A model generated the notes under the pieces. The model saw nothing but the letters and a program-made list of their open reading frames with translations. It was not told the DNA's origin and did not search any database. From IMG/VR virus record IMGVR_UViG_2698536480_000007: a stretch of 13,226 nucleotides of DNA; one strand, written 5' to 3'. Of this stretch, positions 601 to 13,226 are shown piece by piece. Within the stretch, counting starts at the first letter, position 1. The number at the start of each line of letters is the position of its first letter. The stretch is from a virus. Lineage: Duplodnaviria; Heunggongvirae; Uroviricota; Caudoviricetes. The position numbers were made by a program, and so were the translations under genes.

Positions 601-890
601 TGGTGGATTTACGTAAAGCGGCGCGGGGGCGGATGTGCACCGTCAGAATTCTTGGCTACTGCAATCACGATCCGGAAACGTCTGTGCTGGCGCATTACCG
701 ACTGGCGGGAACGTGCGGAACAGCGACAAAACCACACGATATGCAGGCGGCGATTGCCTGTAGCTCATGCCACGATTTAATCGACGGGCGGGTAAAAACA
801 AGCGATTACACCAAAGAAGATTTACGCCTGATGCATGCAGAAGGTGTTTTTCGCACGCAAGAAATCTGGAGAAAGGAAGGTTATTTATGA
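600..890 (+). CDS. YbcO-like small Cys-rich protein (DUF1364-type, putative Zn-binding nuclease)
   Basis: 96 aa with Cys pairs (CTVRILGYC ... IACSSCHDLID) consistent with a Zn site. Resembles DLP12 YbcO from memory. Start overlaps the upstream stop; its stop TGA 888-890 overlaps ATG 887 of the next gene. Confidence 0.55.
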   Translation: MVDLRKAARGRMCTVRILGYCNHDPETSVLAHYRLAGTCGTATKPHDMQAAIACSSCHDLIDGRVKTSDYTKEDLRLMHAEGVFRTQEIWRKEGYL

Positions 891-1429
891 TTTACCCAAC
901 AAATACAGGCAAAAGCGGGGAACACCTTCGTCTCACCACGCTGGAAAGTGTCTGGATTCAGGGAAAACTGCGCATGTGGGGGCGCTGGTCGTATATTGGC
1001 GGCGGTAAGACGGGGAATATGTTCAACCAGTTGTTGGCCTCTAAAAAGCTGACAAAAACGGCAATTAACGAGGCGCTCCGGAGGATGAAAAAAGCAGGTC
1101 TGAACAAGTCTGAACTTGAGGCTTTTTTGCGGGATATGATTAACGGTAAGCAAAAGAGCTGGCTGGCGCATTGTACTGATGCAGAGGCGTTATGTATTGA
1201 TCGGGTCATAAGTGAGGTGCTGGCAGAGCATCCAGGATTGATTAGCGTCCTTCGGCAACGGTATGAGGGGCGGGGGATGACCAAACGCAAAATGGCTGAA
1301 TTGCTAAATGATGCACACCCAGAGTGGTGTTTTAGCACATGCGAAAAGCGAATTGCTAATTGGTTGGCTGTTGCTGAGTATGCGCTATACATTCCCATGC
1401 GAGAATCATTCGCTCAAAAAACGGCTTGA
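887..1429 (+). CDS. late-gene antiterminator Q-like protein (not lambda-Q type; phage 82/21-like family by recollection)
   Basis: 180-aa ORF with GGAAGG Shine-Dalgarno 6 nt upstream and ATGA overlap with the preceding gene. Last gene of the nin-type operon immediately before tRNAs and the lysis cassette. Contains a CFSTCEKR Cys pair. The ORF-track start at 767 was rejected because it overlaps the upstream gene out of frame. Confidence 0.55.
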   Translation: MIYPTNTGKSGEHLRLTTLESVWIQGKLRMWGRWSYIGGGKTGNMFNQLLASKKLTKTAINEALRRMKKAGLNKSELEAFLRDMINGKQKSWLAHCTDAEALCIDRVISEVLAEHPGLISVLRQRYEGRGMTKRKMAELLNDAHPEWCFSTCEKRIANWLAVAEYALYIPMRESFAQKTA

Positions 1430-1794: not shown

Positions 1795-1870
<76 letters not shown>

Positions 1871-1873
1871 TAT

Positions 1874-1948
<75 letters not shown>

Positions 1949-2310
1949 GCATTTAAAACAAGCCTTATTGTATTACGGCACTGGCGTATTTTTTTATTAC
2001 GTGGGAGCAGGTTGTTTTGAAAAAGCATTCTGTTCTCTGGCTATGATTTGAGGCCGGGTGTAGCCTCAGTGCTAATTTTTTACGGCAGCAGAATGGTGCA
2101 TTATCGGTGGAGATTTTGTATTTCCTGGCAGGGTCGGTGATGCATCATTTTGGTGTTGTAAAAGCACCACAGAGGCGCTCCTCAGTGAGAGGGTGGTTTA
2201 AAGAGTCGGTTTAGCGGGAAACCACAGTATCCATGCAGCACGGAATACTTCGGGAGGCACCCGACGCCTCGGTTTAATAACAATTAAAAAATTCATCCCT
2301 TGCATTGACC

Positions 2311-2337
2311 AACCGCCATATCTGGCGGTTTTTTTTA
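2311..2337 (+). terminator. strong rho-independent terminator
   Basis: GC-rich stem AACCGCCA (2311-2318) / TGGCGGTT (2323-2330), loop TATC, followed by a run of T (2329-2336). Confidence 0.7.
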
Positions 2338-2724
2338 TTCCTTTCTCAGGACAAAAAAAGACACGAGCATACAGGAATACTCGTGGGACAACGTCCTTTA
2401 GATAGCAATTTGCGAGAGGGTGAAAAGTAGCGCGGTCGTCGGATTAAGACCGCGGGACAAAGTCCATGAAGAATAATAAGTATTGGCCCCTTCTGGGGAC
2501 ATGTTCATACTACTAAGCTTCAGAAGTGGTTTAAATCATCAAATTAACCTTAATTTTCGATAAGTCTTATTTCATTTCTTTGCGCCACACCTGGCGCGCA
2601 TCAAATAACGCCACGCAAAGGGCATCTGCGGATGCCGGTGCTTTTGACGGGGTGTTTTTTACGGGCCGCTGGTGGCCATTTTTTGTTTCCATTACACAGC
2701 GCCCGCATCTGCGAGGTGGGGGTT

Positions 2725-2940
2725 ATGAAATCCATGGATAAGTTAACAACAGGTGTCGCCTATGGCACCTCCGCAGGCAGTGCTGGCTACTGGTTTTTAC
2801 AGTTGCTCGATAGAGTCACGCCCTCACAGTGGGCAGCAATAGGTGTGCTGGGTAGTCTGGTGTTTGGCCTGTTGACGTATCTGACAAATCTTTATTTCAA
2901 GATTAAAGAAGATAAGCGTAAGGCTGCACGGGGAGAGTAA
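2725..2940 (+). CDS. class II holin, phage-21 S-type pinholin with dual-start motif
   Basis: 71 aa [26 protein letters not shown]...[11 protein letters not shown]: two TM segments, first one Gly/Ala-rich. N-terminal M-K-S-M gives the antiholin (Met1) and holin (Met4, ATG 2734) starts. SD GAGGTGGGGG upstream. The upstream part of the ORF-track ORF (from 2632) was rejected. Confidence 0.8.
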
Positions 2941-2944
2941 TTCA

Positions 2945-3289
2945 ATGACTCAAAACTATGAACTGATTGTGAAAGGGATCCGCAATTTTGAGAATAAAGT
3001 TACGGTAACTTTAGCGTTACGGGACAAAAAACGCTTTGACGGTGAAATTTTAGACCTGGACATCTCGCTGGACCGTGTTGAAGGTGCCGCGCTGGAGTTT
3101 TATGAGGCAGCAGCCAGAAGGAGCATCAGACAGGTCTTCCTGGATGTTGCTGCCGGGTTATGTGAAGGGGATGAGCAGTCACCGGAAAAGCGCCCCATAA
3201 TTTTAGAGGCGCAGGGTGTGTGGATAACCTACAAAGGAAAACTGCCGGGAAGAATTACTGGTTCACTGAAGACTCCGCCGAAATGGTAA
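2945..3289 (+). CDS. YdfR-like protein of unknown function (DUF1327-type, the kind found between holin and endolysin in Qin-type cassettes)
   Basis: 114 aa starting MTQNYELIVKGIRNFENKVTV...LEFYEAAARRS, recalled as YdfR-like. SD GGGGAGAG with ATG 5 nt after the holin stop (translational coupling). The C-terminal ~35 aa look atypical and overlap a convergent ORF. Confidence 0.55.
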   Translation: MTQNYELIVKGIRNFENKVTVTLALRDKKRFDGEILDLDISLDRVEGAALEFYEAAARRSIRQVFLDVAAGLCEGDEQSPEKRPIILEAQGVWITYKGKLPGRITGSLKTPPKW

Positions 3290-3527
3290 TTTCACCAGCA
3301 TATTTTTCTTCCAGTAATACCGCCAGCCACTTGAAAGAATTTTGTTGTTGCTGGGACCATTTGGGGTTGAGTGATTCAAGCTGGAGCGATGCCAGTGTTG
3401 GTTGCATTTGTTCCTTGGGAATTGAGAATGCCAGATATGAAAATGCGACAGTAAGGGCATTTACATCATCCCGAAGCTTGGAAATGCAGTCGAGCAACTC
3501 CTGTAGAGAAATGGTGCTATTGTCCAT
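3255..3527 (-). CDS. hypothetical small protein, convergent antisense gene in the holin-endolysin gap
   Basis: 90 aa from ATG (minus strand, + coords 3525-3527), preceded by AGAGAGGA with 6-7 nt spacer. Upstream on the minus strand are TTGAAT and TAAATA hexamers with 15-bp spacing. Fills a 343-bp gap that has no + strand gene. A chance ORF of this length is not excluded. Confidence 0.3.
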   Translation of the reverse strand: MDNSTISLQELLDCISKLRDDVNALTVAFSYLAFSIPKEQMQPTLASLQLESLNPKWSQQQQNSFKWLAVLLEEKYAGEITISAESSVNQ

Positions 3528-3632
3528 AAACAATCCTCTCTATTGTATTTAACTATTCCTTGCCTGATTCAACAGGCCGGGACAGATAAACATATCCAGG
3601 GTTCAGAAACCGATAAATCCTGATAAATATCC

Positions 3633-4166
3633 ATGAACGCAAAAATCAGATACGGCCTGTCGGCTGCCGTTCTGGCACTGATTGCCGTCGGTGCGCCTGC
3701 GCCTGATATTCTCGACCAGTTTCTGGATGAAAAAGAAGGTAACCACACAACGGCATACCGCGATGGTTCCGGCATCTGGACCATCTGTCGTGGTGCCACA
3801 ATGGTGGATGGTAAGCCCGTCATACCGGGAATGAGGCTGTCGAAGGAAAAATGCGACCAGGTTAACGCTATTGAACGTGATAAGGCGCTGGCATGGGTGG
3901 AGCGCAATATTAAAGTACCACTGACCGAACCACAGAAAGCGGGTATAGCGTCATTTTGTCCCTATAACATTGGCCCCGGTAAGTGTTTCCCGTCGACGTT
4001 TTATAAGCGGCTGAATGCCGGTGATCGTAAAGGTGCATGCGAGGCGATTCGCTGGTGGATAAAAGATGGTGGGCGCGATTGCCGCATACGTTCAAATAAC
4101 TGCTATGGACAGGTTATTCGTCGTGACCAGGAAAGCGCATTAGCCTGTTGGGGGATAGATCAGTGA
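3633..4166 (+). CDS. endolysin, GH24 T4-lysozyme-like with N-terminal SAR / signal-anchor-type segment
   Basis: 177 aa. Weakly hydrophobic Ala/Gly-rich N-terminus ([17 protein letters not shown]), then catalytic E-x8-D-x5-T triad ([16 protein letters not shown]). Partnered with a pinholin as in phage 21. Confidence 0.85.
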
Positions 4167-12642: not shown

Positions 12643-13226
12643 TGGCATTCAGAATGAGTGAACAACCACGGACCATAAAAATTTATAATCTGCTGGCCGG
12701 AACTAATGAATTTATTGGTGAAGGTGATGCATATATTCCGCCTCATACAGGTCTGCCAGCAAACAGTACCGATATTGCACCGCCAGATATTCCGGCAGGC
12801 TTCGTGGCTGTTTTCAACAGTGATGAGTCATCGTGGCATCTCGTTGAAGATCATCGGGGTAAAACGGTTTATGACGTGGCTTCCGGCGACGCGTTATTTA
12901 TTTCTGAACTCGGTCCGTTACCGGAAAATGTTACCTGGTTATCGCCGGAAGGGGAGTTTCAGAAGTGGAACGGCACAGCCTGGGTGAAGGATACGGAAGC
13001 AGAAAAACTGTTCCGGATCCGGGAGGCGGAAGAAACAAAAAACAACCTGATGCAGGTAGCCAGTGAGCATATTGCGCCGCTTCAGGATGCTGCAGATCTG
13101 GAAATTGCAACGGAGGAAGAAATCTCGTTGCTGGAAGCATGGAAAAAGTATCGGGTATTGCTGAACCGTGTTGATACGTCAACTGCACCTGATATTGAGT
13201 GGCCTACGAACCCTGTCAGGGAGTAA
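12642..13226 (+). CDS. tfa: tail fibre assembly protein Tfa (lambda-type)
   Basis: 194 aa [51 protein letters not shown]..., near-identical to lambda Tfa as recalled. Follows the Stf C-terminal tip. Confidence 0.85.

Follow-up and report, generated by a model that had tools for sequence, protein, structure and literature searches.

The window analyzed here, a whole stretch of 13,226 nucleotides (nt) from IMG/VR record IMGVR_UViG_2698536480_000007, represents the part of a lambdoid Escherichia coli prophage devoted to late control. Its interval 1949-2724, located between a tRNA pair and the holin gene and called the spacer below, is probably the non-coding "moron slot" of the late-operon leader in a lambdoid prophage at the Rac/trkG site. 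Comparison with related loci makes it fairly likely that the interval is a convergent pair of small RNA (sRNA) genes flanked by processing and terminator modules. Structures and homologies were computed in this work; the transcripts and roles of the model are what we infer.

The annotated gene order in E. coli strain 135 is hokD, DUF1367, DUF1364, DUF1133, tRNA-Thr, tRNA-Gly, spacer, holin EssD, YdfR, lysozyme, Rz1, and trkG, the last being a marker of the Rac site, and the same arrangement is found in ATCC 8739 and in E. coli W, where the interval falls at ~1,518,300-1,519,120 of NC_017635. Several complete genomes match the spacer at 99.9% identity, and it is present in 373 of 5,426 such genomes (~7%), on the chromosome every time. 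About 170 related loci (172) were collected from two IMG/VR pattern scans and from E. coli records. When a species-level genome collection was scanned with the 16-mer CCGCGGGACAAAGTCC, most matches arose by chance in phyla without any relation, and those in E. coli and Shigella alone were real; this 16-mer is too short for specificity, and the claims on distribution are confined to Escherichia and Shigella.

The spacer is non-coding, as the initial annotation had proposed. A scan for open reading frames (ORFs) found none of at least 60 codons inside it, and the sole long frame touching it belongs to the holin ORF, which can be extended upstream in frame to an ATG at 2632 (2632-2940, 102 amino acids [aa]). 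In an alignment of 46 collinear variants (75-100% identical), substitutions were spread evenly over the codon positions (152/160/169, p = 0.64), and 45 of the 49 distinct indel events were not multiples of three. Ten ORFs of 30-53 codons gave no match to PHROG and none to Pfam above the cut-off (one lies below it, 17.6 vs. 27 bits). Neither a conserved frame, nor codon-position bias, nor a family match was therefore found that would indicate a protein-coding gene or a pseudogene. The Prokaryotic Genome Annotation Pipeline (PGAP) places "hypothetical proteins" over the spacer in some genomes and none in others, and two of them traverse the terminator hairpin. The respective RefSeq calls (window 2567-2692 on the minus strand, and the equivalents of L006 1618-2016 and L008 1619-1909) are probably annotation artefacts because they overlap with terminators and with tracts of variable indels.

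The hairpins listed in the initial annotation are all present in the sequence, and the coordinates are exact for CGCGGTC/GACCGCG (2431-2437/2448-2454), GCGCCA/TGGCGC (2582-2587/2592-2597), GGCATC/GATGCC (2621-2626/2631-2636), GGCC/GGCC followed by T6 (2664-2667/2674-2677, with the T-run up to 2684), the terminator 2311-2337, and the long-range complement GAGGCG/CGCCTC (2172-2177/2265-2270). Only CACGAG/CTCGTG had been placed one base off, its true site being 2362-2367/2380-2385. The hairpin-rich character of the interval is confirmed and exceeds chance. In detail, a consensus scan of 1380-2800 found six terminator-like sites vs. 2.0 +/- 1.4 in shuffles. The whole interval folds on the plus strand at -267.5 kcal/mol vs. 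-225.5 +/- 8.0 for shuffled sequences (z = -5.3) and on the minus strand with z = -4.7, while the respective values are -7.3 for 1949-2165 by itself and -3.4 for the minus strand of 2343-2506. The structure is also conserved across homologous prophages: in all four modules described below the paired positions are kept and covary, with 97.9-98.9% of cells paired vs. 32-55% in slid controls (helix partners shifted) and 5-9 compensatory pairs each.

The candidate plus-strand RNA and the tRNA trailer

The plus-strand candidate sRNA (M3, table 1) is a divergent relative of STnc100 (RF02076) that fails the curated score of this family. It consists of a closing helix (2172-2177/2265-2270), four inner hairpins, an A/U-rich linker, and an intrinsic terminator (2311-2330) with U8. 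The Rfam alignment is full-length (model positions 1-206) and sets GAGGCG/CGCCTC as the closing helix and CGGGAGGCACCCG, that is, CGGG-AGGCA-CCCG at 2250-2264, as the last inner hairpin. Window-type relatives at the same position score 22-38 bits to STnc100. In 57 distinct variants, 97.9% of the cells are paired vs. 47-54% when slid, with nine compensatory pairs, and one position of the closing helix is CG in 29 variants and UA in 26. The long-range complement noticed earlier is therefore this covarying closing helix. When a covariance model (R1) was built from the 57 window-type sequences only, it picked up over 30 of the STnc100 copies that pass the Rfam cut-off, at the Rfam coordinates, with scores of 22-48 bits and E values between 1e-5 and 4e-11. 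The candidate sRNA that had been placed with its end at 2337 is real as a sequence family of divergent STnc100 type.

STnc100, known as EcOnc27 in O157 Sakai and as sRNA103 in EDL933, shares with 2168-2340 the multi-branch build and the position, between a phage tRNA cluster or toxin slot on one side and the lysis genes on the other. In canonical loci it lies ~80 nt after a cluster of three tRNAs, and in Stx2 phages it lies 75 nt after stx2B, where it is the Hfq-bound sRNA EcOnc27/sRNA103 (PMC12370729, PMC12711010). Hfq binding of this sRNA is documented (PMC4104026, PMC12711010). The analogy with the toxin slot of Shiga toxin (Stx) phages, drawn in the initial annotation, was thus correct, with canonical STnc100 right after tRNA clusters or stx2B (PMC12370729, PMC12711010). 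On the other hand, the sequence of M3 is too diverged for BLAST, and it is preceded by the conserved ~28-bp hairpin M2, which canonical STnc100 loci do not have.

The tRNA-Thr/tRNA-Gly pair is the 5' part of a module that travels with the spacer. Behind it, the hairpins M1 and M2 were found 98.2% paired in 33 variants vs. 38-53% when slid, with seven compensatory pairs, and for 17 of the 73 pairs the commonest state is G.U. The predicted structure of M1 and M2 is confined to the plus-strand RNA because, read from the opposite strand, each such G.U would become an A.C mismatch. M2 is the best conserved block of the spacer, with mosaic junctions at 2067 and 2162-2169, and neither Rfam nor ARAGORN recognizes the M1/M2 domain. 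The ideas that M1 is an antiterminator RNA of put type or a tRNA that has degenerated were set aside, as ARAGORN and Rfam support neither; a put-like M1 is also disfavoured by the fact that a terminator-resistant constitutive transcript would run into the holin.

The tRNAs, the trailer, and the STnc100-like RNA are probably contained in one precursor, since no terminator was found between tRNA-Gly and 2311. The M2 duplex is a plausible candidate for an RNase III or other processing site which would create the 5' end of the sRNA. Stable small RNAs cut from the trailers of polycistronic tRNA precursors include 3'ETS-leuZ and the "species 1/2" RNAs of the T4 tRNA cluster. These have no sequence relation to the window, and its processing is what we infer.

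The minus-strand unit

The hairpins at 2362-2385 and 2431-2454 had been taken as parts of a plus-strand leader, and no gene had been proposed for the opposite strand. The leader reading was not borne out by the comparison, as the hairpins form a separate unit best read on the minus strand, with a promoter-like motif, covarying helices, and terminators. This unit is probably a minus-strand sRNA gene running from ~2500 to 2423 or 2353.

The hexamers of the promoter-like motif and their 16-nt spacing were found in 47 of 47 distinct variants (TAGTAT in 24, TAATAT in 22, and TAGAAT in one), including those with diverged spacers. About 7 nt past TA(G/A)TAT there is a 5' stem-loop GUCCCC/GGGG, alternating with GUCUCC/GGAGAC. 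The core continues with the invariant single-stranded CCAAUACUUAUUAUUCUUCAU, GGACuuuGUCC, CGCGGUC...GACCGCG, and a U-run, and in 27 of 39 variants the CGCGGUC hairpin is followed by six to nine U, that is, a canonical terminator. The window haplotype has a second terminator, CACGAG...CUCGUG with U7, at 2385-2353 on the minus strand. The minus-strand terminator is kept in three unrelated 3' continuations, and the U-runs are located 3' of the hairpins when the unit is read on the minus strand. Pairing reaches 98.9% across the five helices; six compensatory pairs were counted vs. at most two in slid controls, and two base pairs that form U.G in minus-strand RNA would turn into A.C if read as plus strand. 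The core RNA also ends at a recombination junction (2423-2431).

The unit matches no Rfam family on either strand, and no AsxR, AgvB, or Esr41 match was found at E up to 10. A covariance model of its core (R2) gave no match to the Esr41-like site of enteropathogenic E. coli (EPEC; L010) or to AsxR (L197). However, R2 located a paralogue between zinT and serU in EPEC E2348/69 (55.6 bits, L425 1425-1558), two other E. coli, and Shigella flexneri (53.9-54.0 bits for these three, L317, L367, and L371), with E of ~3e-15 to 1e-14. It contains the same 3' module, GGACUUUGUCC with CGCGGC...GCCGCG and U6, and a different 5' region. It also shows a similar upstream TTTAAAC/TAGTAT with a shorter spacing (13 nt), gives no Rfam match, and lies ~290 nt from tRNA-Ser (serU), a phage attachment site. 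No entry for it turned up in the parts consulted of the EPEC supplements on RNA interactions mapped by ligation plus sequencing (RIL-seq).

Tentatively, the minus-strand unit may found an undescribed sRNA family borne by prophages and islands, with a fixed 3' module (GGACUUUGUCC and the CGCGGC...GCCGCG terminator), exchangeable 5' seeds, and paralogues in the Q-holin interval and at zinT-serU. Such RNAs could act as sponges for core sRNAs, in the manner of AsxR/AgvB, or as a cis-antisense safety catch by which read-through transcripts are destroyed short of the holin gene; this proposal as a whole is possible rather than likely. RNAduplex comparison of both candidate RNAs with the translation-start regions of the window gave long unrealistic duplexes, with the holin ranking 4th of 41.

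Similarly to this unit, AsxR and AgvB (RF02703/RF02702) combine a conserved 3' module with a variable 5' region. They are 51-60 nt long with a ~42-nt conserved 3' region, whereas the minus-strand RNA of the window is predicted at ~78-148 nt and does not match them. In EPEC, a match of Esr41 (RF02676) type is located as the unit is here, on the minus strand between an STnc100-like RNA and the holin. Esr41 and the unit share an order of 5' stem-loop, U/C-rich single strand ending in CAUGG, small hairpin, and terminator, but there is no significant model match in either direction. Consequently, no relation of the predicted minus-strand partner to AsxR, AgvB, or Esr41 could be demonstrated.

Table 1. 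Genes and predicted elements in and around the spacer (window coordinates)
Feature	Position	Strand	Basis or description
DUF1133 (Q-like antiterminator)	887-1429		Annotation in E. coli strain 135
tRNA-Thr(UGU)	1795-1870	+	ARAGORN; Rfam tRNA (73.8 and 65.6 bits for the Thr/Gly pair)
tRNA-Gly(UCC)	1874-1948	+	ARAGORN; Rfam tRNA
M1, tRNA 3' trailer domain	1976-2074	+	Three hairpins closed by helix 1976-1983/2067-2074; consensus fold of 33 variants
M2, long imperfect hairpin	2079-2162	+	2079-2107/2134-2162, ~28 pairs, plus apical stem 2109-2114/2120-2125
M3, divergent STnc100-family sRNA candidate	2168-2340	+	Sub-threshold Rfam alignment, covariation, reciprocal model matches
Candidate minus-strand sRNA	2353-2501	-	Core ~2500 to ~2423; extension in the window haplotype to the second terminator
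Promoter-like motif	2507-2535	-	TTTAAAC (2535-2529), 16 nt, TAGTAT (2512-2507)
Covarying hairpin GCGCCA-cacc-UGGCGC	2582-2597	Unassigned	Variants GCGUCA/UGACGC and GCGCCG/CGGCGC keep pairing
M6, tandem terminator module	2603-2684	+	56 variants, conserved pairing
Holin-specific leader with Shine-Dalgarno sequence (GAGGUGGGGG)	2692-2724	+	Before the EssD start at 2725
Holin EssD	2725-2940		Annotation in E. coli strain 135

Flanking elements, exchanged modules and related loci

The element that the initial annotation saw adjoining the ribosome-binding site of the holin is a conserved terminator pair (M6). Its first hairpin (2610-2612/2651-2653 and 2618-2626/2637-2645) is followed by U6 (2655-2660), and the second, GGCC-gcuggu-GGCC (2664-2677), by AU6. 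In 56 variants 98.2% of the cells are paired, with five compensatory pairs, and the pair 2625/2638 is U.G in 51 of them, which is compatible with the plus strand only. The GGCATC/GATGCC hairpin described earlier is present but limited to variants with a 6-nt insert, the conserved pairing in 2618-2645 being AAGGGCAUC/GGUGCUUUU. M6 is placed directly upstream of EssD-type, "putative holin"-type, and other holins and directly downstream of varied cargo, and conservation falls at 2691, where the holin-type-specific sequence starts. Both 2311-2337 and 2603-2684 show the marks of predicted intrinsic terminators (a G+C-rich hairpin and a U-run, conserved). The simplest reading of M6 would be an insulating terminator pair passed only by Q-modified polymerase. 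Located upstream of the predicted minus-strand promoter, the hairpin at 2582-2597 lacks a U-run in both orientations and shows a plus-strand G.U in one lineage.

The interval had been described as two elements; pairwise block maps instead resolve it into a mosaic whose modules have been exchanged independently. Sequence from the tRNAs through ~2690 is common to 115-140 of the ~170 loci, or ~130 of the 172, while this Q gene or this holin occurs in only ~45 of them. Sharp junctions recur at 2067, 2162-2172, 2340, 2423-2431, 2604/2605, and 2691. Some relatives do not have 2341-2600, in others 2166-2420 is swapped for another cassette, and there are also relatives with inserts of 430-1,300 bp (e.g., a second copy of 2067-2340, or TerB plus DUF3927). 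One spacer is found ahead of three different holin types. Judged from these maps, the modules for the predicted sRNAs, the trailer, and the terminators change places as cassettes without regard to the Q and holin genes beside them.

In L008 (1720-1890), L184 (ATCC 8739), and L136/L173/L174, an unrelated segment of ~170 nt, with a similar terminator at its end, takes the place of the STnc100-like cassette, and because of such replacements the sRNA slot may hold alternative cassettes. The 430-nt insert between two sRNA modules gives a weak match to the tmRNA model (16-19 bits; L021 1479-1574 on the minus strand, L060 771-866 on the plus strand, and the L181/L110 variants) and also holds an opposite-strand tRNA-like 3' end, GGGGACTCGAACCCCGC. 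In phage SerU-LTIIb (L002, KU052038), an LT-IIb enterotoxin prophage, the tRNA, spacer, and holin module occurs twice in tandem (1122-2456 and 3028-4127), the first copy terminating in a truncated holin.

At the moron site 3' of pR' in eight Sakai prophages, convergent Hfq-bound sRNA genes have been described (Tree et al. 2014, PMC4104026), for example EcOnc27 (STnc100) and AsxR 3' of stx2B (PMC4104026). In accordance with this, locus L197 has AsxR on the opposite strand immediately after STnc100. The window likewise pairs a plus-strand sRNA of STnc100 type with an opposite-strand sRNA, both predicted, and the plus-strand terminator 2311-2337 faces the minus-strand terminator 2385-2353, 3' of pR' and 5' of the lysis genes. 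By its predicted elements, the window is the toxin-less form of the convergent-pair layout that Tree et al. found in EHEC prophages, in a Rac/SerU-type prophage. The only parts without a described counterpart are the minus-strand RNA and the structured tRNA trailer.

A further comparison is with PasD1 and PasD2 of EPEC E2348/69 (Pearl Mizrahi 2021; 2026 preprint), Hfq-dependent sRNAs of the Q-to-holin interval which are accompanied by an sRNA-like element on the minus strand and, ahead of the holin, by a terminator. They have been linked to STnc100 by structure (Zhu, Shabalina and Storz 2026 preprint, doi 10.64898/2026.05.13.724894), and PasD2 (41.4 bits) and PasD1 (37.7 bits) are sub-threshold to STnc100 like M3. 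In prophage PP4 of EPEC, PasD1, a minus-strand Esr41-like match, a terminator, and the holin follow one another in that order. However, the predicted seed regions of PasD1 and PasD2 differ, and no similarity of the spacer to the Pas sRNAs (PasA, B, C, and D; the four E2348/69 loci L009-L012) was found with blastn at word size 7.

An Rfam scan of the window at gathering scores gave nothing beyond the two tRNAs and IS009 (RF02111), which matches full-length at 12985-13183 on the plus strand (220.9 bits). IS009 is a frequent neighbor of PasB (2026 Pas preprint, doi 10.64898/2026.05.13.724894), and the EPEC PasB locus has no BLAST match to the window.

Upstream of the tRNAs, promoter-like hexamers are located at 1675-1718; in phage Sp5 the tRNAs are driven by a separate promoter between tR' and stx2 (PMC7547250). 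The tRNA pair (1795-1956) is ~84% identical to part of the tRNA cluster of T4-like phages, and a long hairpin lies immediately 5' of tRNA-Thr (1726-1791), its loop containing a 13-nt tandem direct repeat (GCTCGGTGATATC twice, 1750-1775). Across unrelated loci, 20 canonical STnc100 loci among them, conservation within 1380-1800 is highest in 1441-1490, the 50 nt immediately behind the Q-like gene. This part is followed by a terminator at 1509-1545, and 1441-1545 gives weak Rfam matches (STnc370 30 bits, IsrK 14 bits). This segment looks like a unit of pR', a short RNA, and tR'. StxS and lambda 6S RNA (PMC7547250) are by-product RNAs of late-operon control that end at a Q-overridden terminator, and StxS is processed by RNase E into a trans-acting sRNA (PMC7547250). 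They start at pR' directly after Q, and their equivalent in the window is 1441-1545, which is outside the spacer finding. Further downstream, the minus strand holds a 92-aa ORF at 3255-3533, antisense and placed between ydfR and the lysozyme gene; several genomes have it annotated as a hypothetical protein (WP_000370546.1), and transcription of this ORF would head toward the holin.

A model of the spacer and its alternatives

According to the model, a promoter at ~1675-1718 would give rise to a precursor with tRNA-Thr, tRNA-Gly, M1, M2, and the STnc100-like sRNA, and this transcript would halt at the strong terminator 2311-2337. An sRNA of ~165-190 nt would then be freed by RNase P, RNase E, or RNase III, with the M2 duplex of ~28 bp as the probable site of processing; the A/U-rich single-stranded stretch and poly-U-tailed terminator of this sRNA would be the usual build of an Hfq-dependent regulator. 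The opposite-strand gene would use its own sigma-70-type promoter (2535-2507) to produce an RNA of ~78 nt that ends after the CGCGGUC hairpin and may, in the window haplotype, extend to ~148 nt and end at 2353. This RNA would probably base-pair via the invariant single-stranded CCAAUACUUAUUAUUCUUCAU, and it might also act in cis because it is fully complementary to the late leader. In the lysogen, the tandem terminators 2603-2684 would shield the holin gene from all upstream transcription, and in lytic growth Q-modified RNA polymerase would pass every terminator of the interval.

Several points weigh against the convergent pair. The score of M3 (2145-2340) to RF02076 is 22.1 bits and thus below the gathering score of 47 bits, and R1 failed to find EPEC PasD. 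M3 shows no promoter of its own, and no convincing hexamers were seen in M2 when the sequence was read by eye; for this reason, its 5' end rests on an assumed processing step. The minus-strand promoter agrees with the consensus at 8 of 12 positions and is absent from the promoter scan list, the U-run after the CGCGGUC hairpin is weak in the window haplotype (CUACUUUUC), and the strand call from wobble pairs depends on two pairs. As single-sequence folds, M3 at 2168-2340 (z = -1.7) and M6 at 2600-2692 (z = -1.2) are unremarkable; their helices are nonetheless conserved and covary across variants. The covariation is drawn largely from a few recombining haplotypes, so that independent events are few, and the support for transcripts, their ends, and Hfq binding is wholly comparative.

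The alternative that survives best concerns the middle unit, whose hairpins in 2353-2500 could be leader hairpins of the plus strand or a bidirectional terminator, with no minus-strand gene and a "promoter" that is merely conserved sequence. Every stem can indeed form on both strands, only the two wobble pairs discriminate between them, and the weak promoter (8/12) lies in a region that is well conserved overall. Yet it is only on the minus strand that U-runs come after the hairpins, as they do in three unrelated 3' contexts, while the hexamers with their exact spacing persist despite a diverged spacer. The 3' module also has a paralogue at another chromosomal site, outside any late leader, and convergent sRNAs are documented at this very position (PMC4104026). 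We consider this alternative rather unlikely.

An unlikely reading, too, is that of a purely cis-acting late-operon leader, in which terminators, processing sites, and stabilizing hairpins serve the Q-dependent transcript and no trans-acting sRNA is made. It agrees with the presence of at least three plus-strand terminators ahead of the holin, with the strand of most of the strong structure (M1, M2, and M6 are on the plus strand), and with the uninformative target search within the window, in which the holin was 4th of 41. The homology of M3 to STnc100, a documented Hfq-bound sRNA (PMC4104026, PMC12711010), is an indication to the contrary. So are the exchange of the modules as self-contained cassettes, with their own terminators and beside unrelated Q genes and holins, and the promoter-like and terminator signals of the middle unit on the opposite strand.

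The palindromes might also work as DNA, either as dyads for protein binding or as recombination hot spots that generate the mosaic. Module boundaries do recur at sharply defined points, and the hairpin at 2582-2597 has no terminator features on either strand; but G.U wobbles are widespread and cannot form pairs in DNA or in the opposite strand, and the stems covary instead of staying conserved, unlike operator half-sites, which makes this explanation very improbable. Finally, a decayed protein-coding cargo gene (a former moron) is hardly credible, for although TerB and DUF3927, or two hypothetical proteins, occupy the same interval in related prophages and PGAP calls ORFs of 97-133 aa in some relatives, these ORFs run through the terminator hairpin and vary between close relatives, codon periodicity is missing, frameshifts dominate the indels, Pfam and PHROG give no match above cut-off, and it is the base-paired helices that are conserved.

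With the convergent sRNA pair as the preferred reading, the earlier interpretation stands for the non-coding and structured nature of the interval, the STnc100-type sRNA, the terminators, and the toxin slot, and is revised for the strand of the middle hairpins and the number of elements. The view of late-gene control is unchanged by the finding. The convergent-pair layout is extended beyond Shiga-toxin and EPEC prophages to Rac/SerU-type prophages of commensal, animal, and laboratory E. coli, and in this extended form it covers ~7% of complete genomes, E. coli W and ATCC 8739 among them. Both RNAs are overlooked by PGAP (via Rfam), and spurious ORFs are sometimes called over them. If the minus-strand RNA is real, it would represent an unnamed sRNA family with a chromosomal paralogue.

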